Origin: an uncultured Planctomycetia bacterium
GTDB taxonomy: Bacteria > Omnitrophota > Gorgyraeia > Duberdicusellales > 4484-171
NCBI GenBank assembly: GCA_964489445.1
Contig: CAZAYU010000002.1
Coordinates: 355,900-419,899, forward strand
Reading direction: 5' to 3'
Length of the DNA: 64,000 nucleotides
How positions within the stretch are numbered: position 1 is the stretch's first letter; every line of letters starts with the position of its first letter. Of the stretch, positions 8,805 to 56,206 are shown one piece after another. Under the pieces are notes generated by a model. The model saw nothing but the letters and a program-made list of their open reading frames with translations, was not told the DNA's origin and did not search any database. The translations under genes were made by a program, and so were the position numbers.

Positions 8805-10223
8805 ATGAAAGTGCTACTTATAAAAACACCATACCTGAATATTTACGGAAGCCTTAAGGATGCAGCCAGGGGTTATTTTCCAATGGGCTTGGGTTACATT
8901 GCCTCTGTTTTAAAAAATTCAGGGTTTGAGGTAATGATGCTTGATCCAGAAGCAAATTTAATGAGTGAAAATGCTATTCGAGCTGTGATAAAAAGTTTTT
9001 CACCAAGTGTCATCGGGATAAGTTGTAGTACGCCAAATATTTACGAGGCCAGGGATTTAGCTAAGATAGTGCGACAAGAGTCTTCTGCAACTATTGTCTT
9101 AGGAGGGGCACATGCTTCAAGCCTTCCTGTACTCACCCTGAAGCAGTTTTCTGATTTTGATCTTGTGGTTTATGGAGAGGGTGAGTTGACCATGCTGGAG
9201 CTCTGTCAAACATTAAAGGCAGGCAAGCAGCAGATGCATAAGATCAAAGGCATAGCCTATAGAGCCAATGGAGGTATTTTAGTTAACGAAGCTAGACCTT
9301 GGATAAGCGATCTGGATCAATTGTCATTTCCGGAGAGAAGTCTTTTGGACATATCCCTTTACAGACCGCAAACCAATATGGAAAGAGGCAAAAAGAGTGC
9401 AGTAATTATTACTTCCAGAGGTTGTCCCTTTAAATGTACGTTTTGCGCTTCATATCATACAGCTGGAAGAATTTTTAGGTCGCATAGCCCACAATATGTA
9501 ATTTCGGAAATGGAATATTTGATTAAAAATTATGGTATAGAATATTTTTTAATCCAGGATGATGAATTTACTATAGATCCTCAGAGGACGAGAAAGATTT
9601 GTCAGATGATTATTGAAAGGAAGCTAAGAATTGAATGGTGGTGTCATTCCAGAGTCGATACAGTTACAGAAGAGCTTTTGTCGTTGATGAGAAAGGCAGG
9701 GTGTGTCCATATTTCTTATGGAGTAGAATCAGGCAATGAAACTATTTTAAAGAGTTACAGAAAAGGAATTAGCTTGGAGCAATCCAGATGTACGCTTAAA
9801 ATTAGTAATCGCCTCGGTCTTAAAACTCATTGCTTTTTTATCTTGGGTCACATAAATGAGACCAAGCAGACAATCAAGGAAACTATAAGGTTTGCTATTG
9901 AGCTTGCGCCCACGATGAGTTCATTTGCCATGCTGGTTCCTTACCCTGGGACAGAAGAATTTGAAAAAGCTAAATTGGACCTCAGAGATATAAATATTTG
10001 GAAAAATTTTGTAACTATTAGCGGAGTACCTATAATTTCTTCTAACGGTCTTTCAAGGAAAATGCTTCAGGCTCATCTTGCTAAGGCGTACATATATTTT
10101 TATCTACGGCCAATTCAATTGATGAGAATATTAAAGAATTTAAGCTCTTTTGAAGAACTTAAGGCTTATATCAGGGGTGGTTTTGCATTACTACATCAAA
10201 TAGTTAATTGGATAAAGGGGTAA
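8805..10223 (+). CDS. Cobalamin-binding (class B) radical SAM enzyme, paralog 1
   Basis: N-terminal B12-binding-like Rossmann region ('MKVLLIKTPY...GLGYIASVLKNSGFEV'). Radical SAM cluster motif 'SRGCPFKCTFCAS' (CX3CX2C). Confidence 0.85.
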   Translation: MKVLLIKTPYLNIYGSLKDAARGYFPMGLGYIASVLKNSGFEVMMLDPEANLMSENAIRAVIKSFSPSVIGISCSTPNIYEARDLAKIVRQESSATIVLGGAHASSLPVLTLKQFSDFDLVVYGEGELTMLELCQTLKAGKQQMHKIKGIAYRANGGILVNEARPWISDLDQLSFPERSLLDISLYRPQTNMERGKKSAVIITSRGCPFKCTFCASYHTAGRIFRSHSPQYVISEMEYLIKNYGIEYFLIQDDEFTIDPQRTRKICQMIIERKLRIEWWCHSRVDTVTEELLSLMRKAGCVHISYGVESGNETILKSYRKGISLEQSRCTLKISNRLGLKTHCFFILGHINETKQTIKETIRFAIELAPTMSSFAMLVPYPGTEEFEKAKLDLRDINIWKNFVTISGVPIISSNGLSRKMLQAHLAKAYIYFYLRPIQLMRILKNLSSFEELKAYIRGGFALLHQIVNWIKG

Positions 10224-17973: not shown

Positions 17974-18271
17974 GGGATTTATAGTGTCGGATCAATATGC
18001 AATTGCTCGGATTGATGAATGGCCTTACTACGGTTTCTTTTATCCTGATAATGTATATGGGGTGCAATTTCATCCGGAGCCAAGTAATGGTGCAGGAAAA
18101 TTTTTAGTTAAATTACAAAGATTCTTATTTGATCATAATGTTTATCAGGAGTTTTCAGCAAAAACACTTTCTAAACATGGAAGGCGATATTTAATAATTT
18201 TATTAACAAATGCCAATAGTTACAGTATAATATTGCTTTATTTACTAAACTTATCTGTTGTTTATAATTGA
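17939..18271 (+). pseudogene. Gene fragment carrying a class-I glutamine amidotransferase signature (GVQFHPE), likely a pseudogene remnant
   Basis: 'YGVQFHPEPSNGAGKFL' resembles the conserved GATase1 C-terminal block. There is no N-terminal catalytic Cys region. It begins inside the transposase remnant and has no RBS. Confidence 0.35.
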
Positions 18272-19323
18272 TGTTATTTATTAGAGTCATTAAATATTCA
18301 TTTAAGATAGTCTTATCTTTATTGTTACTAATTATTTTGTTAGAATTAGGTTCAAGATTTATTGTTCTAATTACTTTAAATAATTTTTTCAATAAATATT
18401 TGCCGGATAGCTACGAGAGTATAGCTGTCCAAGCTCAGAATGATACATATAGCTTTCTTAAGTCTTCAACGTTGCCAGATTCTCAGTGTTATTATATATG
18501 GAAAAATGGATTTTTCAGGGGGCCAACAGGTCAGTTTGATATTTATGGTAAGGAAAGCGATGAAATCAGAGTAATGTGTGTAGGTGATTCTACCACTTTT
18601 GGAGTATGTGTAGATTATTATTGGTCTTACCCTACAATATTAGAGAGGCTGTTAAAAGCAAAATATCCAGAATCAAATATAGGGGTACTAAATACTGGTA
18701 TTCCTGGGGCTTCATCGAAACAAATAAAAAGAGTTTTTCAGAAATATCTAGTAAAGTATAAGCCAGATATTGTTGTTTGGCGTACAGGAGTAAGATTAAC
18801 CGATCATTATGATTTACCTCAGAGCTTAGAAAATCCTATTAACAATTTATTGTGGAATATACTATCCAAGTCTACTTTATTTAGGTTGATTTGTTTATTT
18901 GTTGACAGGGTGATTCCGGATAAGCCTCCGGTAGATCATACATTGTATTCTTATCTAATAGAAAGAAATACGACATTGGAGCCTTGTGGTAATTTTGATT
19001 CAAATTTCGCCATAGTAAATGATATTGCGCGAAGCAATGGAACTAAATATGTTTTAGCTGTTGATTATTTGAGGCGGGATTTAGATGGTTCTCAGAATAT
19101 TACAAGCGACTTTGATGATTACCCAGATAAAGATGTGCCTCCGGTAGTAAATACTTATGAAACTTTTAAAGAAATATTAATGGACGTAGATATCAATGAT
19201 GTATTCGTTGACGAATGTCATCTTACAAGGTTAGGCACAAGCGTTATTGCTAATGCAGTGGCTGAACATATAACTACTAATGGTTGGATTGATAGTTTTA
19301 CAAATAAGCATCCAGACGGGTAA
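18268..19323 (+). CDS. SGNH/GDSL-family hydrolase or acyl-esterase with an N-terminal TM anchor
   Basis: Block I 'IRVMCVGDSTTFG' (GDS nucleophile). C-terminal block V 'DECHLTRLG'. It is paralogous to the ORF at 54641. Confidence 0.7.
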   Translation: MMLFIRVIKYSFKIVLSLLLLIILLELGSRFIVLITLNNFFNKYLPDSYESIAVQAQNDTYSFLKSSTLPDSQCYYIWKNGFFRGPTGQFDIYGKESDEIRVMCVGDSTTFGVCVDYYWSYPTILERLLKAKYPESNIGVLNTGIPGASSKQIKRVFQKYLVKYKPDIVVWRTGVRLTDHYDLPQSLENPINNLLWNILSKSTLFRLICLFVDRVIPDKPPVDHTLYSYLIERNTTLEPCGNFDSNFAIVNDIARSNGTKYVLAVDYLRRDLDGSQNITSDFDDYPDKDVPPVVNTYETFKEILMDVDINDVFVDECHLTRLGTSVIANAVAEHITTNGWIDSFTNKHPDG

Positions 19324-19460: not shown

Positions 19461-19706
19461 TTGTTTGCGCTAAAATTTAACATAAAAACAGGCATCAAAG
19501 TATATAAACAAGATAAAAAACATATGCTTAAATGGGCTAAAGAAAAATTTCCTAAATATCTTATATTTAAAGAATTAATTAATTTTTTTTGTAAGAATAG
19601 GCTATGGTGGATGATACCATTAATTATTGCTTTTGTATTCTCAGCAGTGTTAATATGGTTTTGTCAGTCTTCGGCAGTATCTTCCTTGATGTACACTCTA
19701 TTTTAA
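19461..19706 (+). CDS. Small membrane peptide (81 aa, or 60 aa from the internal ATG at 19524) with one C-terminal TM helix, ending ...SSLMYTLF
   Basis: '...NRLWWMIPLIIAFVFSAVLIWF...SSLMYTLF'. It resembles the unannotated peptide at 54486 (KWW + TM + FIYSLF). From memory (unverified), it also resembles the DUF5989 small-membrane-peptide family, whose C-terminus ends 'FIYTLF'. Confidence 0.45.
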   Translation: MFALKFNIKTGIKVYKQDKKHMLKWAKEKFPKYLIFKELINFFCKNRLWWMIPLIIAFVFSAVLIWFCQSSAVSSLMYTLF

Positions 19707-42424: not shown

Positions 42425-42721
42425 ATGAATAAAAAAAATATCCTAAAAATAATAGCTGATTCAATCAGCGAAATTAATGAAATGAGGCCTAATGATGAAT
42501 ACATCGGTCAAACTTTGGAAACTATTTTGTTTGATACTTCTAGAGAAATTGATTCACTAGAATTTGTAATGTTGATTGTATCGATAGAGAAAAAACTCAA
42601 GAAAGAGTCTGGCAAATGTGTGATTTTAGCAGAAGGAAAAACAATGTTGTACAAAGATGCTTCTTTTCGAAGTGTTGGTGCACTGGTTGATTATATTGAC
42701 TCTATTTTAAAGGACAGCTAA
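42425..42721 (+). CDS. Acyl/peptidyl carrier protein (ACP 1)
   Basis: 98 aa. Phosphopantetheine-attachment motif 'EIDSLEFVMLI' (DSL). It directly abuts the FkbH-like gene. Confidence 0.65.
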   Translation: MNKKNILKIIADSISEINEMRPNDEYIGQTLETILFDTSREIDSLEFVMLIVSIEKKLKKESGKCVILAEGKTMLYKDASFRSVGALVDYIDSILKDS

Positions 42722-44419
42722 GTGTCTAAGATTAAATCAATAATCGTAACAGATTTTACTGCCGATGCCTTAAAAGGCTACCTAAACAATGATACCTGCT
42801 ATCCTTTAGTTAACGCAAAGATTACGCCATTTGCTCAGGTTATGCAATCTTATTTCAAGAGATTTCCAGAATTTGGAAAAAATAAGATTAACTTTGCAGT
42901 TGTCTGGACTAGACCAGAAGGCGTTATTGAATCTTTTATGCGCTTTGCTAATTATCAAAGCGCATCAATTAATGAGATATTAGCCGATGTCAACGAGTAT
43001 TGCCGGTTTTTAATAGGTCTTCAAGATAAGGTAAAATTAGTATTTGTTCCGACATGGATTTTCCCTACTTATCATAGAGGACATGGAATGCTGGAAATGA
43101 GAAAAGATTTAGGCATTAGAAATATTCTTATGCAAATGAACTTAATGCTTTCTGATAAGTTAAATGAAACAAAGAATATTTATTTATTGAATGCTCAAAG
43201 ATGGATTGAAAGCGTAGGCAGTGATGCTTTTGATTCAAAGTTGTGGTATTTAGCTAAGATTCCTTTTGATGCTGCAATCTTCAAGGAAGCGGCAAAAGAT
43301 ATTAAGTCTGCATTAAGAGGTATATTTGGTGTTGCAAGAAAGATGATAATCGTTGATTTAGACAATACGATCTGGGGAGGTTCTGTTGGAGAAATAGGAT
43401 GGGAGAAGCTTAAACTTGGCGGGCATGATCCAGTAGGAGAAGCTTTTGTTGACTTTCAGAGAGCTTTAAAGTCATTTATTAACCGTGGCATTTTATTAGG
43501 TATTGTTAGCAAAAATGAGCCGTCCGTTGTGTTAGATGCAATAAATAATCATCCAGAAATGTGTCTAAGATTAAATGATTTTAGTGCATGGGCGATTAAC
43601 TGGGAAGATAAAGCTAAAAATATCATTCGTTTAGCATCGAATTTAAATATTGGTCTTGAATCAATAGTCTTTATTGATGATAATCCATTAGAAAGAGCAA
43701 GGGTCAAAGAGTCTTTGCCGGAGGTTTTTGTTCCTGAATGGCCTAAGAACAAGATGCTGTTTAGGGAAACTTTGCTTAATCTTTCTTGCTTTGATACACC
43801 TTCAATAACTGAGGAGGATTTAGCCAAGACTAGAATGTATATGTCTTTTATCAGCCGTAAAGGGCAGCAAATAAAAATGAAGTCAGTGAATACATGGTTA
43901 AAAAAACTGTTTATTAAAGTAAAAATAGATGAGTTGCAGGATGTTGATATTGAAAGAGTAACGCAACTGTTAAATAAAACAAATCAAATGAATTTAACTA
44001 CTAGACGCCTTATTGCCTCAGAGTTGGATATTTGGGCCCATAAAAGAAATCATAAGCTTTGGACTTTTCGAGTTTCAAATAAATTTGGGGATTTAGGCTT
44101 AGTAGGTGTGGTAAGCCTTGGAATAAACAGAAAAGAAGGCAGGATTGTAGATTTTGTTTTAAGCTGCAGAGCTTTTGGGTTAAGGATTGAAGAAGCTATG
44201 CTCATTGCAACTATACGGTATTCTCAAAGTGTTGGTTTAATAAAAGTGCAGGCAAAATATATCAGCACTCCTAAGAATAAGCCTTGTTTAAATTTTTGGA
44301 GAAAAACAATATTTGAATTTGACAAAAAAAGAAATATCTTTTTTTATAGTCCAGGAAAAACTCATTATTTTCCGCGATACATTACAATAGTAGACAATCG
44401 ACGCAGTGATCCCTGTTAG
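42722..44419 (+). CDS. FkbH-like HAD-superfamily (subfamily IIIC) glyceryl-ACP loading enzyme
   Basis: HAD motif I 'MIIVDLDNTIWGG'. Motif II 'GIVSKN'. Motif IV 'VFIDDNPLERARV'. A C-terminal roughly 200-aa FkbH-type domain. 565 aa. Confidence 0.75.
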   Translation: MSKIKSIIVTDFTADALKGYLNNDTCYPLVNAKITPFAQVMQSYFKRFPEFGKNKINFAVVWTRPEGVIESFMRFANYQSASINEILADVNEYCRFLIGLQDKVKLVFVPTWIFPTYHRGHGMLEMRKDLGIRNILMQMNLMLSDKLNETKNIYLLNAQRWIESVGSDAFDSKLWYLAKIPFDAAIFKEAAKDIKSALRGIFGVARKMIIVDLDNTIWGGSVGEIGWEKLKLGGHDPVGEAFVDFQRALKSFINRGILLGIVSKNEPSVVLDAINNHPEMCLRLNDFSAWAINWEDKAKNIIRLASNLNIGLESIVFIDDNPLERARVKESLPEVFVPEWPKNKMLFRETLLNLSCFDTPSITEEDLAKTRMYMSFISRKGQQIKMKSVNTWLKKLFIKVKIDELQDVDIERVTQLLNKTNQMNLTTRRLIASELDIWAHKRNHKLWTFRVSNKFGDLGLVGVVSLGINRKEGRIVDFVLSCRAFGLRIEEAMLIATIRYSQSVGLIKVQAKYISTPKNKPCLNFWRKTIFEFDKKRNIFFYSPGKTHYFPRYITIVDNRRSDPC

Positions 44420-44481
44420 CCAATTTTTAAATTAGAAGCGAGTAAAAATTTTAGCTTGATATAAGCGGTAGCCAATTCTAG

Positions 44482-45921
44482 ATGCTATTTACTTCATTAC
44501 AATTTGCAGTATTTTTTATTATTGTTTATGGAGTATATACTCTGCTTAAACACAGACAACAGAATATTATGCTTCTTGTGGCCAGTTATATTTTTTATGG
44601 AGCATGGGATTGGAGATTTTTATTTTTGATATTTATATCAACTGTTTTTGATTATTTTTTTGGGGCAGCAATATATAGGTCTAATAGCAATAAGCAAAAA
44701 AAAATATTTGTTTTTTGTAGTATTTTTACAAATTTATCTATTTTAGTGTTTTTTAAATATTTAAATTTTTTTATTCTGAATTTGCAGTTTTTATTAAGAC
44801 GTTTTAATCTGCCTAATGTAATTTTTCCTTTACACATAATACTTCCTTTGGGGTTGTCTTTTTATATTTTTCAAAAAATGAGCTATACCATAGATATATA
44901 TAGAGGTGAGATGAAACCTGTAAGAAAATTTTCAGATTTTGCACTTTTTGTAAGTTTCTTTCCCCAGCTTCTTGCAGGGCCAATCGAAAGAGCAAAGCAC
45001 CTTATTCCGCAGATAATCTTTCCTAGAAAATTAACCATGGATAAATTTCAAAAAGGCTGTTATCTAATATCTTGGGGCATATTCCAGAAACTTTTTGTTG
45101 CGGATAATTTATCAAAAGTTGTGGATTCTGTATTTTCTAATCCGGGTCCTTACAATGGTTTAGAAGTTTTGTTAGCTTCTTATGCTTTTACATTTCAGAT
45201 ATTTTGTGATTTTGCAGGTTATAGCAATATAGCAAGGGGTCTTGGTAAATTAATGGGATTTGATATTATCAATAATTTTGATCTCCCATTTTTTGTTACA
45301 AACGTACAAGATTTTTGGAAAAAATGGCACATTAGCTTGAGCACTTGGATTAAGGATTATGTGTATTTTCCGCTTTTTTATCACATGCGAATGATTAGAG
45401 GTAAAATGCGTATCTATATTACATTAGTAGGTACGATGATTTTGTTAGGCTTGTGGCATGGCGCAAGATGGACCTTTGTCCTTTTTGGGTTATATTATGG
45501 TTGTTTGCTTAGCTTGTATGTAATGTCAAAACCTGTTTTATGCAAAGCGATAAAAATTGTAAAATTCACAAAAAGCAGGCAGTGGTTTTGGGTTAAAGTT
45601 ATTTTCATGTTTCATATTACAGTGCTTGGAATGCTAATTTTTAGAGCTAATTCTGTTGGCCAGCTAATACAAATGGTTCATAGCGTTGTGTTTAATTTTT
45701 CTATTCCAGAATATTCGATTATGCTCAGAATGATCGGAAAAATATTATTTTATATTAGTTTTTTGTTACTTATCCAGTATTTTCAATTTAGAAGAAATGA
45801 TCATTTTGTTGTTCTTAAATGGCATTGGGCGTTGCAAGGATTTATATATTTTATAATTATGTTTTTTTTGTTTACTTTTGGCAAAAGCGGAGGAAATGAG
45901 TTTGTATATTTTCAATTCTAA
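44482..45921 (+). CDS. MBOAT-family membrane O-acyltransferase (DltB/AlgI-like), copy 1
   Basis: MBOAT signature 'FWKKWHISLSTWIKDYVYFPL' with the conserved His. About 10 TM helices. Confidence 0.85.
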   Translation: MLFTSLQFAVFFIIVYGVYTLLKHRQQNIMLLVASYIFYGAWDWRFLFLIFISTVFDYFFGAAIYRSNSNKQKKIFVFCSIFTNLSILVFFKYLNFFILNLQFLLRRFNLPNVIFPLHIILPLGLSFYIFQKMSYTIDIYRGEMKPVRKFSDFALFVSFFPQLLAGPIERAKHLIPQIIFPRKLTMDKFQKGCYLISWGIFQKLFVADNLSKVVDSVFSNPGPYNGLEVLLASYAFTFQIFCDFAGYSNIARGLGKLMGFDIINNFDLPFFVTNVQDFWKKWHISLSTWIKDYVYFPLFYHMRMIRGKMRIYITLVGTMILLGLWHGARWTFVLFGLYYGCLLSLYVMSKPVLCKAIKIVKFTKSRQWFWVKVIFMFHITVLGMLIFRANSVGQLIQMVHSVVFNFSIPEYSIMLRMIGKILFYISFLLLIQYFQFRRNDHFVVLKWHWALQGFIYFIIMFFLFTFGKSGGNEFVYFQF

Positions 45922-47152
45922 TTTCCGAAAGATTCTGCGATTTTTCATGCTTAATCGTGCTTTTTTTGCTGGAGTTTTATTTTTTTGTTTTTCGCAATTA
46001 ATTTGTTTGAATATTTCCAATATAAGCAAAACAAGGCATAAGCAAGTGATAGAGCACAAGCGACAAGCAGTAAAGAGTATCGATTTCAGCAAAGATAAAG
46101 GATTGCGAGAGTCTGTATTTTTTTTTGGCTCATCCAAGATCTTAGCAGCTATAATTCCAAAATTTTTTGACGAATGCAATGAAGATGGAACATATTCTTA
46201 TAATTTTGCAATACCAGGATTACCATTGGCATCTCAATATTTTATTTTTAAAGAATATTTGGAAAAAACCGAAGTACCCGATTATGCAATAATAAAACTA
46301 AATAATGGAATATTTCCTCTTTGGCTTTTTCCTTCTTTTTCTATTCAAGGCGCGAGTTTGTCCGAGGTTTTGCAGTATGCTTTTCTTACGAAAGATGTAT
46401 CAATGTTATTTAACTATTTTATTCCATCAAGGGTGTATTGGTCCGGCATTAGCAGATTTATTGCTGGTAGGGCCCTATCTTTAGTACCTGATAGCGTGCG
46501 GGCATTACATAAATCAAGATATCTTAATTTTTTTTCTAGTAAAAATATGTATTACTATAATTGGGAGTTTGAATATGATGCTAGCTACATTTTTCCAAAA
46601 GAATATGCAAGAGCGTTGAGAGAATCTTTAGAAAAGAATCGAGGATATTATTATATGGTGGAAAAGGCTATGCCAAGAACAGGCGCTTTTGAAAGTATTA
46701 CAGTGCCACCGAAACACAGAAAATACTATGAAGCAATAATAGAGGCGGGTAGGGAAGGAAAAAACTTTAAAGGGCCTGTTTCTGTAAAGACTACAAAGCG
46801 CGAAAGAGATACGAAAAAGAAGCTTGATACTTTTTTCTTGGATAAATTTTTTATATTGGCCAAAGATTATAAGTGTAAAGTCATTTTGGTTGGAGATTAT
46901 ATGCCTGATAGCAACAAAGATACTCCAGGCGTTTATATTGAGGAAAATATAACCCTGGGCTGTTGGGAGCTATTGCAAAAAAAATATGATAATGTATTTT
47001 TTTTAAAGGATGGCTTTAAGACCGTATTTTATAGTCCGGATTTTTTTTCTGACCCCGAACATTTGGATTATGAGGGGGCAAAAAAATTTACAAAAAAGAT
47101 TGCTAAGGAATTTCAAGCAATAAAAAAAATAATCAAAAGCAATAAACAATAA
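45878..47152 (+). CDS. DltD/AlgJ/AlgX-like (SGNH-related) acyl-transfer partner protein
   Basis: N-terminal TM anchor. 'VFFFGSSKI' corresponds to the DltD GSSE nucleophile block. C-terminal 'DPEHLDYEGAKKF' corresponds to the D..H catalytic block. The start may be the ATG at 45896. It overlaps the MBOAT gene's end. Confidence 0.6.
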   Translation: MAKAEEMSLYIFNSNFRKILRFFMLNRAFFAGVLFFCFSQLICLNISNISKTRHKQVIEHKRQAVKSIDFSKDKGLRESVFFFGSSKILAAIIPKFFDECNEDGTYSYNFAIPGLPLASQYFIFKEYLEKTEVPDYAIIKLNNGIFPLWLFPSFSIQGASLSEVLQYAFLTKDVSMLFNYFIPSRVYWSGISRFIAGRALSLVPDSVRALHKSRYLNFFSSKNMYYYNWEFEYDASYIFPKEYARALRESLEKNRGYYYMVEKAMPRTGAFESITVPPKHRKYYEAIIEAGREGKNFKGPVSVKTTKRERDTKKKLDTFFLDKFFILAKDYKCKVILVGDYMPDSNKDTPGVYIEENITLGCWELLQKKYDNVFFLKDGFKTVFYSPDFFSDPEHLDYEGAKKFTKKIAKEFQAIKKIIKSNKQ

Positions 47153-47153
47153 A

Positions 47154-48332
47154 ATGCATTTTATAAGTTTAACATATTTGGTATTTCTATTTATATCTGC
47201 TACCATCTATTGGTTTTTTCCCGTCAAGCATCGAAAGTTGTTTTTAATATTTATCAGTTTATTATTTATCTGCAGTTATAAATGGGTAATTGCTTTTTTA
47301 TTTTTATTCATGGGGACAGCGACTTATTTTAGCAGCAGATTTATATTAAGTACGACTTCAAATTGGAAGAAAAAAATAATTTTTATATCAATTTTGATTG
47401 GTTTTATAGTAAGTCTCTTTTTATATAAGTATTTTGGGCTAAATTTATTGTTGGTACATTCATCTTTTGAATCATTTGATTTTCTTATAGCGCTGGGGTT
47501 TTCATATGTTTCCTTTAGAATGATACATTATATTATTGAGAGCTACCGGAAGAATGTTCCTGACGTTTCATTCTTGGATTTTATTTGTTATGTTGTGTTT
47601 TTTCCCATTTTTTTGGCCGGTCCGATAGAAAGATTTCAAGCGTTTCATCGGCAAACAGCGGAAAATAAACACATAGGATTTTATGATGTAAATTATGGAT
47701 TATATCGTATAATTTGCGGTGTTTTTAAAAAGGTTGCTGTTGCAGACGTTATAAGCAAGCTAATCACGCCAGTATTATACTATCCTCTTGGCCATTCCAA
47801 AACTATATTGATATTATCGGTATATGGATTGGCGATACAAATTTATATGGATTTTTCTGGGTATACGGATATAGCAATTGGTAGTGCCAGATTATTTGGC
47901 TATCGGCTTACGGAAAATTTTAATAGGCCATTTTTACAGAAAAATATAGCGTTGTTTTGGAGAAATTGGCATATATCCCTGTATACTTGGATAAGGGATT
48001 ATTTCTTTTTTCCGTTATTTGGTTATCGGGCATCAAAGGTAAAAATCTATATTGGAATATTTTTCAGTATGATGGTATTTATTCTTTGGCACCGGCTATC
48101 ATTAAGCTTTTTTATCTTAGGATTGTATCATGGAACGGGCCTTATTTGTTGGCATATTTTTCAAGGTGTGAAACGTAAATATCCAATAATTCGTCGAGGA
48201 ATATCAAAACGGTACTTGGATCCTATTTCGATCTTTTTTACGTTTAGTTTTCATGCTTTTGGTACCTTATTCTTTATAATGAATTTTGAGCAGGTATTAA
48301 TTATTGTAAAAAGTATTATAAATCTAAAGTGA
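47154..48332 (+). CDS. MBOAT-family membrane O-acyltransferase (DltB/AlgI-like), copy 2
   Basis: 'FWRNWHISLYTWIRDYFFFPLFG' MBOAT signature. 392 aa. Confidence 0.85.
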   Translation: MHFISLTYLVFLFISATIYWFFPVKHRKLFLIFISLLFICSYKWVIAFLFLFMGTATYFSSRFILSTTSNWKKKIIFISILIGFIVSLFLYKYFGLNLLLVHSSFESFDFLIALGFSYVSFRMIHYIIESYRKNVPDVSFLDFICYVVFFPIFLAGPIERFQAFHRQTAENKHIGFYDVNYGLYRIICGVFKKVAVADVISKLITPVLYYPLGHSKTILILSVYGLAIQIYMDFSGYTDIAIGSARLFGYRLTENFNRPFLQKNIALFWRNWHISLYTWIRDYFFFPLFGYRASKVKIYIGIFFSMMVFILWHRLSLSFFILGLYHGTGLICWHIFQGVKRKYPIIRRGISKRYLDPISIFFTFSFHAFGTLFFIMNFEQVLIIVKSIINLK

Positions 48333-48609: not shown

Positions 48610-49899
48610 ATGAAGATTTTATTGGTATCCTCAAATATTGCTGATACACCCTACGCTGTTTATCCTTTTGGTATGAGTATAGTTGCGTCTGCGCTTTCTA
48701 GTGCAGGATATTGCGTTAAGCAAACAGATTTTTTACAGAGCAAAAAATCTCTGGATGTTTTATCAAAAGAGCTTAACGCTATGCAGCCAAATATAGTAGG
48801 GGTATCGATGCGTAATATAGATAATGTTAATTCAGTCAATGAGCAGCGCTACATTGACAGCGTTGTAGATATTGTTTTGACGGTAAAGAAGAATTCAAGT
48901 GCTATTGTTGTGCTAGGTGGTTCTGGATTTTCTCTTATGCCTGATGAAATTCTTGAAAAAACAGGTGCAGATTATGGAATTACGGGAGAAGGTGAGAAAC
49001 TAATGGTTGAATTTGTAAAAAATGCTGAAAAAGGTATTTTTCCTGGAGCGAAAATTCTGCGAAGTAAAAATACAATCGCTGGTTGTAACATCTCAAGTGC
49101 TTTGCATGATCTAAAGTTAATGAAGTATTATTTAAGAAGAATTAACGTTGCTTCTGTTCAGACAAAAAGGGGGTGTCCTTATAAATGCATTTACTGTTCG
49201 TATCCTCTCTTAGAAGGTGATAGAGTTAGAGTAAGAAGTCCGAAAATCGTTATTGAGGATATTAAGAAATTGACTAGAAAATATGGAATAAAGCTTATTT
49301 TTTTTGTTGACTCTGTTTTTAACGACTCAGAGGGAAGATATTTAGAGCTTATAGAACAAATGAAATATCATAAAGTAAATGTTTCATGGACGGCGCTGTT
49401 TACTCCTAGAGGATTAACAGATAAAAACGTGAAGTTAATGAAAGATACAGGCTTGCGATTTGCTGAATTAGGGTCGGATGCGCCGACTGATTTTACCTTA
49501 AAAAGATTAGGAAAATCTTTTTTATTTCAAGATATTATTAATGCAAATGATTTATTAGTTAGGCATAAGGTGACGCCTTTGCATTGTTATATGTTCGGGT
49601 GTCCGGGAGAAACAAAAGAAACAGTAATTGAAGGGATTAAGAATATTAAAAAATTAAAAAGCTCGGTTTCGGTTATTTATATGGGTATAAGAATTTTTCC
49701 GAACACTAAGTTAGCGAAGGTTGCAGAGAACGATGGTATAATAAAAAAAGAATGTAATCTTTTAGATTCCGCTTATTATATTAGCCCTTTAGTTGACAAA
49801 AAATGGCTAAAAAAAATACTAATAAAAAGTTTTAAGGGAGTAAAGAATTGCATTTTCCCGCCTGATGCATTAAGCAATTATCGAATATATAAAAAGTGA
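48610..49899 (+). CDS. Cobalamin-binding (class B) radical SAM enzyme, paralog 6
   Basis: 'TKRGCPYKCIYCSYP' (CX3CX2C). N-terminal 'MKILLVSSNIADTPYAVYPFGMSIVASAL' B12-binding-like. Confidence 0.8.
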   Translation: MKILLVSSNIADTPYAVYPFGMSIVASALSSAGYCVKQTDFLQSKKSLDVLSKELNAMQPNIVGVSMRNIDNVNSVNEQRYIDSVVDIVLTVKKNSSAIVVLGGSGFSLMPDEILEKTGADYGITGEGEKLMVEFVKNAEKGIFPGAKILRSKNTIAGCNISSALHDLKLMKYYLRRINVASVQTKRGCPYKCIYCSYPLLEGDRVRVRSPKIVIEDIKKLTRKYGIKLIFFVDSVFNDSEGRYLELIEQMKYHKVNVSWTALFTPRGLTDKNVKLMKDTGLRFAELGSDAPTDFTLKRLGKSFLFQDIINANDLLVRHKVTPLHCYMFGCPGETKETVIEGIKNIKKLKSSVSVIYMGIRIFPNTKLAKVAENDGIIKKECNLLDSAYYISPLVDKKWLKKILIKSFKGVKNCIFPPDALSNYRIYKK

Positions 49900-50164: not shown

Positions 50165-50416
50165 ATGGAGAAAAAAGAGACAATCAGACAATTTATTATC
50201 GAATATTTTCTTTCAGGTAGCGGAGAAATTAAGGATGATGATTCATTATTTGAAGCAGGAATAATAGACTCCCTGAGCCTTCTTGAATTGATCGCTTTTA
50301 TAGAAAAAACATATGGCATTTCTATAAGCATGAGCCAAATCACTATTAGTAATTTTGATTCTATAAATAAAATCTATAAATTAATAAAAGGTAGTAAACG
50401 TAAGGGCATTAATTAG
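50165..50416 (+). CDS. Acyl/peptidyl carrier protein (ACP 2)
   Basis: 'GIIDSLSLLELIAFIEKTYG' (DSL Ser attachment site). Strong RBS 'aggaggtgaat' before the ATG at 50165. The track ORF starts earlier at 50111. Confidence 0.7.
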   Translation: MEKKETIRQFIIEYFLSGSGEIKDDDSLFEAGIIDSLSLLELIAFIEKTYGISISMSQITISNFDSINKIYKLIKGSKRKGIN

Positions 50417-50418
50417 TA

Positions 50419-52857
50419 ATGTTTAATATAAGAATTAATAATGTTACATATGATTTTTCGCGGGAGAAAAATGTTATGATGGCTTTGCGTTTCAAAGGGG
50501 CAAGGCAGCAATGTTTATTTAAGTATGCACGAAATATAAGAGATAAAGTTTTCTCTAAACAGGTCGAAATAAGGAGTGTTATCGAGTATTCTAATGTTTG
50601 TCAGCAGGCATGTAATTATTGCGGAATGAGCAAAGCGTCAATGGTAACTCGTTACATATTAAAAAGAAATCAGCTAATATCTCGTGTTAATAAGTTATAT
50701 GATTGTGGACGTAGAATTATAATATTACAGGCGGGTGAGTGCAATAATGATAATTATTTAGATAATTTGTTTGGCCTAATTAAGATGTTAAAAAATGAAT
50801 ATCCTTATTTAGTCATAGTGGGTAGTTTTGGTAATTTATCGCGAGATAATTATAAAAGATTGAGGGATATTGGGGTCGATAGGTATTTACTTAAATTTGA
50901 AACATCAGATGCTAAGCTATACAGAAGAATTAAGCCTACCGATTGTCTTAAAAAAAGACTAGATTGCATTACATTTTTAAAGAAAATAGGTTTTTATGTC
51001 AGCTCTGGCAATATAACTGGGATACCGCAACAATCTCTTAGTAGTTTAGCTGATGATATTTTTTTACTTAAAAAATTAGATATTTGCATGGGTAGCACAT
51101 CACCTTTTATTCCTAACGAGGTTTCTAATTATAGAGATTGTTTTCCGGGAGATATTAATCTTACGCTTAATTTTATAGCAATCCTAAGGATACTCTGTCC
51201 GACTATGTTAATACCTGCTACAAGTTCTTTGGAATTGATTATAAAGGGAGGCCAGTATCTGGGGCTGATGGCAGGAGCAAATGTGCTTACTTTGCATGAT
51301 GGAACTCCCGCAAATAAAGAAAAAATGTTTTTGTTGTATAAAAAGAATCGGTACAAGCCTAAGGGAATTCTATTTAATATTGTTCAAAGAGCAGGCCTGA
51401 AGCCAAGCTTATTTTCTCTTGTTAAGAATAAAGCAGAAAACTCTCTTTTTTATAAACTCGTTAGCCAGAATGTCAATCGTAAGAGTTCTTATATTTATTC
51501 CGATAGCAGTAGGTATACATACGAGGAAGTGCTATTATTGACTTCGAAATGCTGTTCGTTCTTGCAAGGCAATAATATTAAGGAGAGGGATGTAGTAATG
51601 TTAGCTTTATTTGATTCAATAGAATTCATTATTGTTTGCCTAGCTTGCATAAGACTAGGCATAATTGTTGCACCGATAGATCCGCTATCAACTGTAGACG
51701 AGCTAAGGTTTTTAATCTCTGATTGTGTACCCAAAATTATATTAGCAACAGATAGTATTGCTAAGAAATTAAGATACAAGAATGTTATGAAAATAACCAA
51801 CGATAATTGCCCTAAATATTTTTTTTCGTTGCTCTGCAGGAGAAAAAAAAGTATTTTTTTAGCTGCTGTTGATAAAAATAATCCGGCTATTATTTTGTAT
51901 ACTTCTGGGACTACAGGCAAGGCCAAAGGTGTAGTCCACAGCTATAATGATCTACTTACTATGAATTTTCCACATAAGATATTGAGGGTATGCAAAAAAG
52001 ATATTTTCTTTTCTTATTCTAGGATTTATACTAGTTTTGGTTTTGGTAATAGTTTACTTTTTCCGTTATATTGTGGTGCGTCTGTAATTTTATCCAGAAA
52101 TATCCCAAATCCGGTTGCATTGTCTGATGTGTTATTGTATAATCCTACATTATTTTTTGCGGTTCCCGGCGTGTATAAGCTATTGTTAAGAAGTAGAAAA
52201 CTAATAAAACATAATTTTAGTTGTGTTCGTCAATTTATTTCTTCTGGTGAGAGTCTCGGTGAGGATATTTTTAAGCAATGGGAAAAAGTTTATGGCTTTA
52301 GGTTATTGGATTGTTTTGGAACATCTGAGATGTGCCATCCGTTTATTTCGAATATTCCGGGAGAGGAAAAATCTGGGACTTGCGGAAAAACGGTAGAAGG
52401 ATTTCAGGTAAAGTTTGATAAAAAAGGTAAAATGTTTTACAAGGGGCCTTCCTTGTTTTCTGGATATTATAGAAGGAATAAATTTGTAAAAGAAACAATG
52501 GTGGTTGATGGATGGTTTGAATCAAATGATATTGGACGCGTAGATAAAAATGGCAGTATAGTTTTAAAAGGCAGAGACAATCTAATATTTAAGATTAATG
52601 GTAAGTGGATTTCAGCCTTAAATATAGAGGATAAAATAAATCGATTGGAGTTAATAAAGGAAAGCGCTGCTATAAAGAAAGCAGACGGTTTATATCTGTA
52701 TGTTTCTTTAAATTTAAAGGAAATAAAACCTGTTGAGGCTATAAGCTTAGTAAGAAGTTATTGTGTAGAAAAATTGAAAATTAACGAATTTCCCGTAAAA
52801 ATAAACTTGTTAGATGAAATACCGAAGACAAGAAGCGGGAAAATTAAAAGACAGTAA
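50419..52857 (+). CDS. Fusion protein: N-terminal HydE/PylB/BioB-like radical SAM domain plus C-terminal adenylation (AMP-binding, acyl-CoA-synthetase/DltA-like) domain
   Basis: Radical SAM: 'IEYSNVCQQACNYCGMS' (CX3CX2C) and 'IIILQAGE', reminiscent of HydE/PylB 'SNYC..NC.YCG...VLQSGE'. Adenylation: 'ILYTSGTTGKAKGVV' (A3), 'GESLG', 'GFRLLDCFGTSE' (A5), 'GWFESNDIGRVDKNGSIVLKGRDNLIFKINGKWI' (A7/A8), 'PKTRSGKIKRQ' (A10). It is a single 812-aa frame. Confidence 0.75.
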   Translation: MFNIRINNVTYDFSREKNVMMALRFKGARQQCLFKYARNIRDKVFSKQVEIRSVIEYSNVCQQACNYCGMSKASMVTRYILKRNQLISRVNKLYDCGRRIIILQAGECNNDNYLDNLFGLIKMLKNEYPYLVIVGSFGNLSRDNYKRLRDIGVDRYLLKFETSDAKLYRRIKPTDCLKKRLDCITFLKKIGFYVSSGNITGIPQQSLSSLADDIFLLKKLDICMGSTSPFIPNEVSNYRDCFPGDINLTLNFIAILRILCPTMLIPATSSLELIIKGGQYLGLMAGANVLTLHDGTPANKEKMFLLYKKNRYKPKGILFNIVQRAGLKPSLFSLVKNKAENSLFYKLVSQNVNRKSSYIYSDSSRYTYEEVLLLTSKCCSFLQGNNIKERDVVMLALFDSIEFIIVCLACIRLGIIVAPIDPLSTVDELRFLISDCVPKIILATDSIAKKLRYKNVMKITNDNCPKYFFSLLCRRKKSIFLAAVDKNNPAIILYTSGTTGKAKGVVHSYNDLLTMNFPHKILRVCKKDIFFSYSRIYTSFGFGNSLLFPLYCGASVILSRNIPNPVALSDVLLYNPTLFFAVPGVYKLLLRSRKLIKHNFSCVRQFISSGESLGEDIFKQWEKVYGFRLLDCFGTSEMCHPFISNIPGEEKSGTCGKTVEGFQVKFDKKGKMFYKGPSLFSGYYRRNKFVKETMVVDGWFESNDIGRVDKNGSIVLKGRDNLIFKINGKWISALNIEDKINRLELIKESAAIKKADGLYLYVSLNLKEIKPVEAISLVRSYCVEKLKINEFPVKINLLDEIPKTRSGKIKRQ

Positions 52858-52974: not shown

Positions 52975-54402
52975 ATGGTTAAAATTATATATCGTTTATT
53001 TTTTGTTTTTATGGGCCTTACAATAGTGAATGGAGCATGGTGTTTTGAATTCTGTGCTTATGGGCAGGCTAAGGATGGATCTATGAGTATTAGGAAGAAA
53101 ACAGCATATAATGTTATTTTAATTTCTGTGCCTTGTTTAAGGTTTGACCATTTAAGCTGTTATGGCTATTCAAGAGCAACTACACCCAATATTGATAAGT
53201 TTGCTAAAAAAAGTTTTCTTTTTACTCAAGCGTATTCTCAATCTACATGGACTTTACCGAGTATGGCATCGTTGTTTACTTCTAAGGATGTAATAGATCA
53301 TAAAGTATTTAATTGTGAAACTAAACTTGCAGATTTTGAGTTGACTCTTGCTGAAGTATTAAATATTTTTGGGTACAAGACAGCAGCATTTACTTCGGGG
53401 GTTCATTTTAATAAGAGGTTTAATTTACATCAAGGGTTTGATGTGTATGAAGATATTCCTTTTTCTACATCTGCAGTAAAAACAGGAAAGATAGGGTTAA
53501 AATTAACTGGTAAAAGAGAGATAAAAGATTTTTTTCCCTCTATCGTTGAGTGGCTTGAATGTAATCGGGGTGAAAAGTTTTTTTTATTTGTGGATATTAA
53601 CGATGTGCATCAACCATTTTATTCGCCCGAAGATGGTGATGAAAATATGTTTGATCCCGAATATGAGGGTATAGTAGATAGCCTTTATCTAGATTCATTG
53701 TTAAAAGAGAAAATGCGTGGAGATTTAATAGTAAGGGACGACGGAGAAGTAATAAAGTTGCAAAAGAAGGATGTAGATCATATAATTTCACATTATGATG
53801 CGGGGATCTATTATACAGATAAGTATTTTGGGAAATTAATGAATGAACTTGGCAATATGCAATTGTTAGAAAATACTATAGTTATTTTGACATCTCCGCA
53901 CGGGATTGACCTTTTTGATCATTTTACGTTGTTTCATTATACACATAGCTATCCGTATGAAGAATTAGTTCATGTTCCCTTAATATTTTTTCATCCTAGC
54001 ATAGAAGCAAGTAATATGCGGATTAAGGAACGAGTTCAGCTAATTGATATTTTTCCTACTATTTTAGAGTGTTGTAATATTACTGTGCCCAAGGCAATAA
54101 AAGGAGTTAGTCTATTTTCTTTGATTAAAGATGGAGAAAACATAGATTTATTAAATCGAGATATTTATTTTACATCTGCAATTCCTTCAGGGAGTGATTT
54201 TACCTGGAAAAGCACATATGGTGTTCGTGCATTAAATTGGAAGCTTTTTATGCGGTTTAGTAAACCTCATTGCTCTGTGTATGAATTATATAATTTAGAT
54301 GAAGACCCTTACGAATTAAATAATTTGATTTACGAAGAAAAAGACGTCAGAACGCAGCTAATCATAAAACTTAATGAATGGATAAAGAATGCAGATGAGT
54401 AA
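52975..54402 (+). CDS. Exported sulfatase-fold enzyme, paralog 2 (Thr in the nucleophile position, no FGly motif)
   Basis: Signal peptide. 'LRFDHLSCYGYSRATTPNIDKFA'. 'SQSTWTLPSMASLFTSK'. C-terminal 'LYNLDEDPYELNNLI'. The first metal-ligand Asp pair appears to be replaced ('ISVPCL'). Confidence 0.7.
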   Translation: MVKIIYRLFFVFMGLTIVNGAWCFEFCAYGQAKDGSMSIRKKTAYNVILISVPCLRFDHLSCYGYSRATTPNIDKFAKKSFLFTQAYSQSTWTLPSMASLFTSKDVIDHKVFNCETKLADFELTLAEVLNIFGYKTAAFTSGVHFNKRFNLHQGFDVYEDIPFSTSAVKTGKIGLKLTGKREIKDFFPSIVEWLECNRGEKFFLFVDINDVHQPFYSPEDGDENMFDPEYEGIVDSLYLDSLLKEKMRGDLIVRDDGEVIKLQKKDVDHIISHYDAGIYYTDKYFGKLMNELGNMQLLENTIVILTSPHGIDLFDHFTLFHYTHSYPYEELVHVPLIFFHPSIEASNMRIKERVQLIDIFPTILECCNITVPKAIKGVSLFSLIKDGENIDLLNRDIYFTSAIPSGSDFTWKSTYGVRALNWKLFMRFSKPHCSVYELYNLDEDPYELNNLIYEEKDVRTQLIIKLNEWIKNADE

Positions 54403-54485: not shown

Positions 54486-54638
54486 ATGAGATTTAATTAT
54501 AAGGATTTTATTCAAATAATTTTGACTCAAAATAAATGGTGGGTGACAACAATGCTTATTAGTACAATATTGATTGTCTTTATAATTTTGTATTTGATAA
54601 AATATGAGACTAGTGAGTTTATCTATAGCCTGTTTTAG
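54486..54638 (+). CDS. Unannotated 50-aa membrane peptide ending ...SEFIYSLF, paralogous to the peptide at 19461-19706
   Basis: Translation 'MRFNYKDFIQIILTQNKWWVTTMLISTILIVFIILYLIKYETSEFIYSLF'. RBS 'gaggagagcgaataag' before the ATG. It is absent from the ORF track because it is short. Confidence 0.5.
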   Translation: MRFNYKDFIQIILTQNKWWVTTMLISTILIVFIILYLIKYETSEFIYSLF

Positions 54639-54640
54639 TC

Positions 54641-56206
54641 TTGCAACCAGATATTATGGTTAAAAATAATTGTTTGTTTCTTAAGAGGAAAATTTTATTG
54701 ATAATATTCGGAATATTTTTTTCTTTAATAGTTGTTGAGCTGGGATTGCGAATCGTTGGGTGGGGGTGGTCGGCGCATGATAACTTTAGAAATAAATCTT
54801 ATTTGGTTGAAACCGATTCGGATACAATCAGGATTCTTTGCTTGGGGGCATGCTATACAGCTGGAGTGGGAGTTGAGCCAGATAAAACATATCCACATTA
54901 CTTAGAGAAATTTTTAAGCGAGCATTACCCAACAAAATCTTTTCGTGTTATTAATCGAGGTGTTCGTGGTAAAACATTGTCGTTTTTTGTGAATCGGTTA
55001 GAGCGTTTTGTAAAAGATTATTCTCCTCGAATAATTATTATGAATATAGGAAGTAGTGTGGATTTTTATGAGAAAAATGTGCTTTTAGCGAATAGCAATT
55101 TATTATCTTCTGTTGATAAAATTAAAATTAGCTTGCGTATATTTCTCAAAAAATTTAAAATTTATAGAGTGTTTAATCTTATGTTTTCTTCACTAAACAG
55201 AAGAAATGCGGAAATAAACGATAAGGAGGATATTTCTCGAGAATTTTATGCGGAAGGTGAAGAAAATAAGTATCATGCCCAGGTTAGGGAGTTGCAATGT
55301 AAAGTTAAGGTAGACCCACAATCTTCTGAAAATTGGAGTCGTCTTGCTTTTATTTATGCAGACCAAGGGCTTTATCAGTTGTCAGAAAAATACATAAAAA
55401 AAGCCATAGAACTTGACCAAAACAATGGATGGAATTATTTGCATTTATTTTGGTGTTATGTCTTTCAACGTGAGTATGAATTAGCGGTAAGGTCTCAAAA
55501 ACAAGCGCTAGATGTGGACCCTGCTATTATCAAATGGCTGGATGATGAGATAAAAAATATCAATGGATTTATAAAGCGTAAGCCGTATGTAATGTCATAT
55601 TATTTCCATTTATCAGATAGGTATGCTATGCTTGGTGATTATGAGCGCGCTATAAAAACGCTAAAACAGATTTTATATAAAGGTCCTGACCATATTGATT
55701 ATGTTGATAGATTGTCTTTTTATGAGACAGTGGTTCGAAAAACAAAGAACAGCGATGAAATATGCGTAAATAGTTCAGTAGGTAGGAAAAAGTATTTCAA
55801 TCGGGAAAATAGCCAGCATTGGGCGTTTATGGCTGAAGCAGAAGGCTTTCTTAAAGAAAAAATACCCGTAAATGATTCAGAAAAACTAGATGGATGTAAA
55901 ATATTTGACAGATTATTTAAATATAATTTAAGAAAAATTAATAAAATTGCCAGAAAATATAATATTAAATTTTTTCTTGAAAATATGGGGTCTTCATTTG
56001 AGCAGCAAGAGATTGTAGAAAGTGCTTGCAAAGAATCAAATATACCTTTGGTTGATTTGTATTCTTATTTTAGAAATACATCGGATGATGCGAGCCTTTT
56101 CCATTCTTCTGTTTCCTTGAGGCTTAGTGAAAAAGGGAATAAAATTGTAGCTGAGAAAATATTTAAAGCGTTAGTAAGTGCTGGTGTTGTAGATGAGGTT
56201 AATTAG
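54641..56206 (+). CDS. SGNH-like paralog with an inserted TPR-repeat region. The catalytic GDS is replaced by GAC.
   Basis: 'IRILCLGACYTAGVGVE...YPHYLEKFLSEHYP...INRGVRG' is collinear with the 18268 protein 'IRVMCVGDSTTFGVCVD...YPTILERLLKAKYP...LNTGIPG'. A TPR-like segment spans about residues 200-330. The probable start is the ATG at 54656. Confidence 0.6.
   Translation: MQPDIMVKNNCLFLKRKILLIIFGIFFSLIVVELGLRIVGWGWSAHDNFRNKSYLVETDSDTIRILCLGACYTAGVGVEPDKTYPHYLEKFLSEHYPTKSFRVINRGVRGKTLSFFVNRLERFVKDYSPRIIIMNIGSSVDFYEKNVLLANSNLLSSVDKIKISLRIFLKKFKIYRVFNLMFSSLNRRNAEINDKEDISREFYAEGEENKYHAQVRELQCKVKVDPQSSENWSRLAFIYADQGLYQLSEKYIKKAIELDQNNGWNYLHLFWCYVFQREYELAVRSQKQALDVDPAIIKWLDDEIKNINGFIKRKPYVMSYYFHLSDRYAMLGDYERAIKTLKQILYKGPDHIDYVDRLSFYETVVRKTKNSDEICVNSSVGRKKYFNRENSQHWAFMAEAEGFLKEKIPVNDSEKLDGCKIFDRLFKYNLRKINKIARKYNIKFFLENMGSSFEQQEIVESACKESNIPLVDLYSYFRNTSDDASLFHSSVSLRLSEKGNKIVAEKIFKALVSAGVVDEVN

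Follow-up and report, generated by a model that had tools for sequence, protein, structure and literature searches.

In a 64,000-nucleotide stretch of contig CAZAYU010000002.1 from an uncultured Omnitrophota bacterium (assembly GCA_964489445.1, positions 355,900 to 419,899; hereafter the 64-kb window), one gene fuses a HydE-like radical S-adenosylmethionine (SAM) domain to an adenylation domain of the ANL superfamily, directly behind a gene for a small carrier protein. Judging from the sequences and by analogy with teichoic acid D-alanylation, this fusion probably acts as the acyl supplier of a Dlt-like, carrier-dependent MBOAT/SGNH acylation cassette that would decorate an envelope glycan. 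The main new result is the conserved synteny of genes for all five Dlt roles (for DltD, a candidate) around the fusion, which makes the finding of the fusion itself more coherent. The original prediction, made from the letters of the window, had suggested that a carrier-bound product of the fusion could be the donor for an MBOAT pathway; with an MBOAT at nine loci and a DltX-like microprotein at ten, this is very probably the case.

The fusion gene (50,419–52,857, + strand) begins with an ATG and encodes 812 amino acids in one frame with no internal stop. Pfam places a radical SAM domain at residues 55–214 (PF04055, E = 1.7e-15) and an AMP-binding domain at residues 355–684 (PF00501, E = 6.8e-57). 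The four motifs quoted in the original prediction, which had described a single 812-residue frame with a radical SAM domain and a complete adenylation domain, are all present: the radical SAM motif SNVCQQACNYCG at residues 58–69, whose CX3CX2C signature is C61/C65/C68; ILQAGE at residues 102–107; the A3 motif YTSGTTGKAKGV at residues 494–505; and the C-terminal PKTRSGKIKRQ at residues 802–812. Along the + strand, the gene divides into the N-terminal HydE-like radical SAM domain (residues 1–310; 50,419–51,348), an inter-domain linker (51,349–51,483), and the C-terminal ANL adenylation domain (residues 356–812 and the stop codon; 51,484–52,857), the candidate for the DltA role.

The fusion is real and under selection. 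An identical 812-residue protein occurs on at least 11 contigs, and three ENA assemblies are represented among the occurrences shown. Among 5.8 billion proteins searched, the same architecture recurs in 25 further clusters (46–56% identity), drawn from ENA, JGI, NCBI, and Logan, which makes 26 clusters together with the window protein; below them the scores fall from 665 to 177 bits, where stand-alone ligases begin. The named hosts of the fusion are Candidatus Omnitrophota metagenome-assembled genomes (MAGs) and two MAGs labeled as Planctomycetes-type, and "AMP-binding protein" and "biotin synthase" are the only names that the source databases give the protein. When 20 fusion members are aligned, no variation is seen in the CX3CX2C motif, at G106-E107, in the A3 motif, or at the A10 lysine K808. 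Pairwise identity averages 0.61 in the radical SAM domain, 0.46 in the linker, and 0.52 in the adenylation core; the linker aligns continuously, with R311, P314, L318, L327, and S333 invariant. An AlphaFold2 model of the fusion reached a mean predicted local distance difference test score (pLDDT) of 87.6 and a predicted TM score of 0.84, with pLDDT values of 64–94 along the linker; a Foldseek search of the PDB matched the ligase half only and returned no solved two-domain homolog. As the original prediction had supposed, literature searches turned up no prior description of a radical SAM–adenylation fusion; those on HydE-like enzymes, on MBOATs together with FkbH, and on TIGR04072 likewise gave nothing relevant.

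Three lines of evidence argue for the Dlt-like assignment. First, the gene order around the fusion is conserved. An MBOAT, the carrier, and the fusion stand together at nine loci (the window, L001/L002, L003, L007, L013, L019, L020, L021, and L022), a count over the homolog loci with enough upstream sequence, to which L005, L012, and the rearranged L004 are the exceptions. The carrier gene is directly preceded by an ortholog of the window's MBOAT (38–54% identity) in L001, L003, L013, L019, L020, L021, and L022; in L007, as in the window and nowhere else, a B12-binding radical SAM gene intervenes between the two. On the other side, a microprotein gene directly follows the fusion gene in L001, L003, L006, L007, L019, L020, L021, and L022 and lies upstream of it in L004, and the microprotein is present in ten loci in all (the window and nine others). 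Written with the Dlt letters, the order of the cassette is B-C-(rSAM-A)-X-D, where rSAM stands for the radical SAM domain. The window's copy holds two locus-specific insertions, the B12-binding radical SAM gene that starts at 48,610 and a sulfatase-fold gene between the fusion and the microprotein (52,975–54,402, + strand; 475 amino acids; PF00884, E = 1.1e-42); elsewhere the microprotein follows the fusion directly.

The carrier gene (50,165–50,416, + strand; PF00550, E = 4e-9), in the putative DltC role, is preceded by AAGGAGG and ends 2 nt before the ATG of the fusion. The original prediction of an 84-residue acyl carrier protein (ACP) 2 bp upstream was right about the carrier and the gap, and wrong about the length, which is 83 residues plus a stop codon. 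In every locus where a carrier was detected, its gene abuts the fusion gene within a few nucleotides or overlaps it, and the serine of its IDS motif is invariant in seven orthologs. The protein scores below all NCBIfam carrier cutoffs, including that of DltC (35.7 bits versus 68). A match to the family named "ACP for OlsHI" (49 bits versus a cutoff of 130) was set aside as uninformative, OlsH belonging to the GH3-type planctomycete ornithine-lipid pathway.

Second, the acyl-shuttle motif is distributed between the MBOAT and the microprotein as it is in Dlt. In MBOAT/SGNH systems, the two proteins relay an acyl group via the tyrosine of an FxYxxF motif to an extracytoplasmic polymer (PMC12148441). 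The Dlt donor is an acyl-carrier protein and its FxYxxF tyrosine resides on a separate microprotein, DltX; MBOATs that use acyl-coenzyme A (CoA), as shown for PatA, bear the motif at their own C-terminus, and the other MBOAT/SGNH pathways are described as having neither a carrier nor a DltX-like microprotein (PMC12148441). The cassette's MBOAT (47,154–48,332, + strand; 392 amino acids; PF03062, E = 2.9e-17) is DltB-like: its sole NCBIfam match is DltB (TIGR04091, 158.6 bits versus a cutoff of 375), and its only PDB relatives are two DltB structures (6bug and 8jem), with which its two conserved histidines (WRNWH and ILWH) align. A C-terminal FxYxxF is absent from this MBOAT and from six orthologs. 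Such a motif is found on the DltX-like membrane microprotein (54,486–54,638, + strand; 50 amino acids with one transmembrane helix; GAGGAG upstream), whose sequence MRFNYKDFIQIILTQNKWWVTTMLISTILIVFIILYLIKYETSEFIYSLF ends at the stop codon with ETSEFIYSLF, and hence with FIYSLF. Its equivalents in the other loci are 40–50 residues long, contain one hydrophobic helix, and terminate in F/V-I/V-Y-x-x-F, with the tyrosine and the terminal phenylalanine invariant. Pfam gave the window's microprotein a weak match to DUF5989 only (18.6 bits, below the threshold of 27), and literature searches found no description of a DltX-like microprotein outside Dlt. The window contains another small open reading frame (ORF) that resembles it (19,524–19,706, + strand) and lies directly after a different GDSL-like gene (18,268–19,323). 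Its product includes the segment KNRLWW and a single hydrophobic helix and ends in SSLMYTLF; it may encode a second acyl-shuttle microprotein.

Third, a candidate for the DltD role usually follows the microprotein. In the window, this is a membrane-anchored, GDSL/SGNH-like protein (54,641–56,206, + strand, with a likely ATG at 54,656) that matches PF13472 over residues 67–138 (E = 5.4e-9) and combines tetratricopeptide repeat (TPR) families with an N-terminal hydrophobic helix. Homologs or analogs that follow the microprotein in other loci carry GDS, GES, or GPS at block I; as a group, these partners are a heterogeneous set, and Pfam gives no match for some of them.

The cassette can be placed among known acylation systems as follows. 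DltXABCD, which D-alanylates teichoic acids in Firmicutes, clusters the same five roles, namely an adenylating enzyme, a carrier, an MBOAT, a microprotein, and an SGNH-type protein, the last of which has a candidate counterpart in the cassette. It differs in that the ligase is here of the aryl/acyl-CoA-ligase type and fused to a radical SAM domain, that the hosts are Omnitrophota-type MAGs in which the acceptor, to judge from the genomic context, is probably a polysaccharide and not teichoic acid, and that D-alanine is very unlikely as the acyl group. By analogy, the cassette would work like Dlt, yet it lies outside the DltA, DltB, and DltC protein families. PatA/PatB and AlgI/J/X share with it the MBOAT and SGNH acyl relay, but have the motif in cis and no carrier, whereas the fusion cassette has both a separate microprotein and a carrier.

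The ligase half can be assigned to a family. It belongs to the ANL superfamily by an AMP-binding match above the Pfam threshold, the A3 motif, and the A10 catalytic lysine, and within that superfamily its sequence is of the benzoate/anthranilate-CoA-ligase type, not of the DltA type. The benzoate-CoA ligase family gives 228.7 bits (cutoff 375.25), DltA is outside the 25 best ligase families for the fusion, and the amino-acid adenylation family TIGR01733 reaches 113.4 bits against a cutoff of 317.4. In adenylation domains of the nonribosomal peptide synthetase (NRPS) and DltA type, an aspartate of the A4 region (the PheA D235 position) binds the alpha-amino group of the substrate. The corresponding residue of the fusion, in a register assigned by hand without structural superposition, is F540 (19 Phe and 1 Tyr among the fusion sequences), as in benzoate-CoA ligase. 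The family scores and this residue rule out a DltA-type or other amino-acid-type ligase, and the "DltA-like loader" of the original prediction has to be given up. The nearest relatives are the benzoate/anthranilate-CoA ligases BCL (2v7b), AuaEII (4wv3), and PqsA (5oe3). The fusion differs from them in the smaller and more polar residues of its pocket region (T538, S539, C639, and P641), and in that it appears to be paired with a dedicated carrier, not with free CoA. The closest stand-alone ligase (P0027) was considered as a split version of the fusion and rejected, its context containing no radical SAM enzyme, MBOAT, or carrier.

These features suggest the following route, for which Dlt serves as the model in the loading of the carrier, the direction of acyl flow, and the target polymer. 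The HydE-like domain, with SAM and a [4Fe-4S] cluster, would make an unusual carboxylic acid out of a common small metabolite, and the fused ANL domain would adenylate this acid and thioesterify it onto the phosphopantetheine arm of the 83-residue carrier. In the window, the TIGR04072-type B12-binding radical SAM protein may tailor the acyl group further. On the cytoplasmic side, the MBOAT encoded at 47,154 would then receive the acyl group from the carrier and hand it on to the C-terminal tyrosine of the microprotein encoded at 54,486, from which the membrane-anchored SGNH/TPR protein encoded at 54,641 would transfer it to the glycan built by the surrounding glycosyltransferase/flippase locus. 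As to the identity of the acid, one may speculate that the neighborhood of the HydE sulfur site retained in the N-domain (M224 and two arginines), together with the aryl/heterocycle-type pocket of the ligase, would allow a heterocyclic or sulfur-containing compound. The nearest conceptual parallel is the PylB/PylC logic, in which a radical SAM enzyme makes an unusual acid and an ATP-dependent enzyme activates the product. The likeness is one of logic only, a product of a BioB/HydE/PylB-class radical SAM enzyme being activated at the expense of ATP: PylC is an ATP-grasp ligase and not an ANL enzyme, the pyrrolysine system has neither a carrier protein nor an MBOAT, and the fusion scores poorly as PylB (116.7 bits where the cutoff is 348.2; the PylB sequence in the PDB gives 80 bits).

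Is the acid made before it is loaded, or is it tailored on the carrier? The former order seems more likely. In the alternative, which we regard as rather unlikely while still the most serious competitor, loading would come first, with an ordinary acid as the substrate of the adenylation domain, and the HydE-like domain, with the B12-binding radical SAM protein where there is one, would modify the tethered acyl group before MBOAT export. A fusion of the two activities fits this order equally well, and the minimal loci offer no further enzyme for precursor synthesis. A B12-binding radical SAM protein, a HydE-like radical SAM enzyme, a ligase, and a carrier recur together in three arrangements (the window, L023/L024, and L025), and ACP-linked chains are the proposed substrates of the neighboring TIGR04072 family (PMC13459092). 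The stand-alone radical SAM relatives of the N-domain (48–60% identity) speak the other way: in four of five loci (L008–L011) they have no ligase or carrier nearby, and synthesis before loading is favored for this reason. No HydE/BioB/PylB-class enzyme is known to act on a phosphopantetheine-tethered substrate. Synthesis before loading is favored also because HydE-type enzymes bury small free ligands inside a full TIM barrel (PMC10114646).

A further alternative detaches the fusion from the MBOAT altogether: it and its carrier would be a small unit for natural-product synthesis or lipid modification, with an incidental position inside a glycan locus and a product that is not routed through the MBOAT. 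The relatives in other contexts lend it some support. In L012 (9,739–12,448), the carrier and the fusion stand by themselves among unrelated genes. A second, divergent lineage of radical SAM–ligase fusions (P0156, 771 amino acids, N-domain 38% identical) has a gene that overlaps one for a PP-binding-2-oxoglutarate (2OG) oxygenase, with 2OG oxygenases and a hydrolase around it and no MBOAT nearby. The closest stand-alone radical SAM protein (P0127, 55% identity) adjoins, in L025, a 935-residue adenylation–peptidyl carrier protein–LpxL-type acyltransferase and a B12-binding radical SAM gene. Against this alternative, the MBOAT–carrier–fusion arrangement is kept in nine loci and the motif-bearing microprotein in ten, and an MBOAT without the motif paired with a separate microprotein is the carrier-dependent Dlt pattern (PMC12148441). 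We consider it improbable on balance. The contexts of P0156 and P0127 also tie the HydE-like clade to carrier-dependent acyl transfer.

The two divergent arrangements can be described in full. In L023 (4,523–12,240; L024 has the same genes), a B12-binding radical SAM gene is followed by an unknown gene, an alpha/beta hydrolase, the P0156 fusion, the PP-binding-2OG oxygenase, and an Asp/Arg hydroxylase. In L025 (2,841–8,011), the order is a B12-binding radical SAM gene (BzaD/TIGR04072-like, below the cutoffs), the 935-residue protein, in which an NRPS/DltA-type adenylation domain and a PP-binding domain are joined to an LpxL-type acyltransferase, and the stand-alone HydE-like gene. The AlmEFG system of Vibrio cholerae carries out carrier-dependent lipid A aminoacylation. 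The L025 unit looks AlmEFG-like, as a fused lipid-acylation unit with two radical SAM partners; this likeness belongs to L025, and the window instead has the MBOAT/SGNH route and another class of ligase.

Several observations weigh against the assignment of the fusion to a Dlt-like cassette. No NCBIfam model of the Dlt family reaches its cutoff, with DltB and DltC as given above and DltA not in the top 25. The aryl/short-acyl-CoA-ligase-like class to which the adenylation domain belongs usually yields CoA thioesters, and loading of the carrier is proposed from synteny. Block I of the SGNH-like protein encoded at 54,641 reads LGACYTAG, with a cysteine at the position expected for the nucleophilic serine. 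The adenylation domain of L025 is of the NRPS/DltA type and is joined to an LpxL-type transferase; neither the class of substrate nor the final acceptor can be generalized. The gene neighborhoods are not uniform either: besides the isolated carrier–fusion pair of L012, the sequence examined for L005 shows no MBOAT or microprotein, and in L004 (2,515–5,528) neither a carrier nor an MBOAT was detected beside the microprotein, a truncated SGNH fragment (117 amino acids), and the fusion. L012 and L004 look like orphan or decaying copies; the flanks of the former are a methyltransferase-like ORF upstream and an unrelated 391-residue ORF downstream.

It is also necessary to consider whether the N-domain is simply a known enzyme beside or fused to an unrelated ligase, either a genuine [FeFe]-hydrogenase maturase HydE or an ordinary biotin synthase. 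By sequence, the domain is HydE-like, and HydE is clearly its closest characterized relative, yet it is not a true HydE, because tests of cutoff, residues, and context all fail. The HydE model TIGR03956 gives 219.6 bits for the whole fusion and 223.1 for the N-domain alone, short of the equivalog cutoff of 254.6. With PDB sequences, Thermotoga maritima HydE reaches 180 bits at 34% identity to the N-domain. The domain shares with HydE the CX3CX2C motif, the fold, and the active-site residues R54, R155, L157, and M224, of which R54, R155, and M224 are invariant in the fusion alignment. It departs from HydE at two other positions: Met291, the "backflow valve," is leucine in 16 of the 20 fusion sequences, and Thr134 is replaced by isoleucine, valine, methionine, or leucine. 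In HydE, Met224 and Met291 handle Fe(I), and a threonine and two arginines have been assigned roles at the active site, the threonine at site S3 (PMC11826987, PMC10114646). The linker, moreover, stands in the place of the HydE C-terminal region with its auxiliary cluster, and there is no hydrogenase context: neither the 64-kb window nor any homolog locus contains hydA, hydF, or hydG. BioB is more distant still (about 91 bits versus a cutoff of 225). A standing as true HydE, PylB, or BioB is ruled out by the curated cutoffs, residue mapping, and context, and we judge the rival reading built on it highly improbable. Of the "HydE/PylB-like" label in the original prediction, the HydE half is retained and the PylB half dropped. 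Finally, that a sequencing or assembly frameshift joins two separate genes is ruled out by the identical protein on at least 11 contigs, the 25 homologous clusters of the same architecture, and the conserved linker, and nothing speaks in its favor.

The N-domain belongs to a wider clade. In an exhaustive search of 1.84 billion representatives, which gave about 1,900 HydE-like hits, its nearest relatives are stand-alone proteins of about 335 residues (55%, then 43–44% identity), and the clade grades into canonical HydE at 30–37% identity. The three stand-alone members that were scored also fall below the HydE cutoff (207, 207, and 175 bits). HydE-like domains occur in other fusions as well. Five proteins of 550–620 residues (P0135, P0152, P0199, P0200, and P0270) join one to a class I SAM methyltransferase, and P0139 (825 residues) joins one to a second radical SAM domain, which matches the position of a HemN-like gene (PF06969) that L008 (9,518–12,944) carries two genes upstream of its own stand-alone HydE-like gene.

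Other genes of the window bear on the setting of the cassette. The "nearby MBOAT/DltD-like module" of the original prediction does exist, although it is not a single module: there are two, and the fusion's partner MBOAT is the one at 47,154–48,332. The second module (42,425–47,152) comprises a 98-residue ORF with an EIDSLEF serine motif and no Pfam match; an FkbH-domain protein (42,722–44,419; TIGR01686, 250.7 bits versus 146.65), a loader of glyceryl groups onto a carrier; an MBOAT of 479 residues with the motif in cis (44,482–45,921; C-terminus NEFVYFQF); and a membrane protein of 424 residues (45,878–47,152) with an FFFGSS motif resembling SGNH block I and no Pfam match. The MBOAT at 44,482–45,921 belongs to this separate FkbH-carrier module and is not the fusion's partner. 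Its combination of a cis-motif with a carrier and an FkbH loader is a misfit with the rule that cis-motif MBOATs use acyl-CoA.

The B12-binding radical SAM protein between the MBOAT and the carrier (48,610–49,899, + strand; 429 amino acids) matches TIGR04072, a family of B12-binding/radical SAM proteins named for lipid biosynthesis, with 550 bits against a cutoff of 360. Most fusion loci have no such gene; it was rejected as a core part, being inserted only in the window and in L007, where the copy is of a different type. We keep it as an accessory tailoring candidate because B12-binding radical SAM proteins of its kind, for which it is the best match, recur beside a HydE-like radical SAM enzyme, a ligase, and a carrier in L023/L024 and L025. 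The window encodes seven B12-binding radical SAM proteins (starts at 8,805, 13,068, 22,580, 36,624, 38,079, 48,610, and 61,450), of which only that at 48,610–49,899 passes a curated family cutoff (TIGR04072), and the HydE-like domain brings the radical SAM domains to eight. The same 64 kb holds glycosyltransferases, GT-C/PMT_2 enzymes, two flippases, a UDP-GlcNAc 2-epimerase, and sugar-modifying enzymes, as well as a DegT aminotransferase, an AsnB-type amidotransferase, and five sulfatase-fold proteins. All but one or two genes lie on the + strand, with a steadily positive GC skew of 0.15–0.28 and a GC content of 30–38%. No Rfam match to a riboswitch or other RNA element was found anywhere in the window, its long intergenic gaps included, and promoter and terminator scans of the window gave counts equal to the shuffled expectation.

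What would such a cassette mean? In a broader and more tentative reading, which we offer as a possibility, Dlt-type acylation is not a Firmicute specialty but an older, modular export route, which in Omnitrophota-type bacteria has been coupled to radical SAM chemistry, with a HydE-like enzyme making, or tailoring on the carrier, a novel acyl group that becomes esterified to a surface glycan. The acyl group could then be sulfur-containing, rearranged or, with the B12-binding radical SAM protein, C-methylated. If true, this would give the HydE-like clade outside the hydrogenase setting its first physiological reaction on a small molecule, HydE-like enzymes being otherwise known only from assembly of the organometallic H-cluster, together with a new class of glycan decoration, and it would carry the recently solved Dlt mechanism into a distant phylum that is largely uncultured, with an acyl group other than D-alanine. 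The fusion also offers a handle on HydE-like function beyond hydrogenase maturation: the ligase and the carrier should trap the product covalently, and the product should therefore be readable as a mass shift on an 83-residue protein. The radical SAM-rich glycan locus, with eight such domains in 64 kb, is flagged as a source of new envelope chemistry, and the fusion may serve as a "Rosetta stone" that ties the stand-alone HydE-like clade of several phyla to carrier-dependent acyl transfer.

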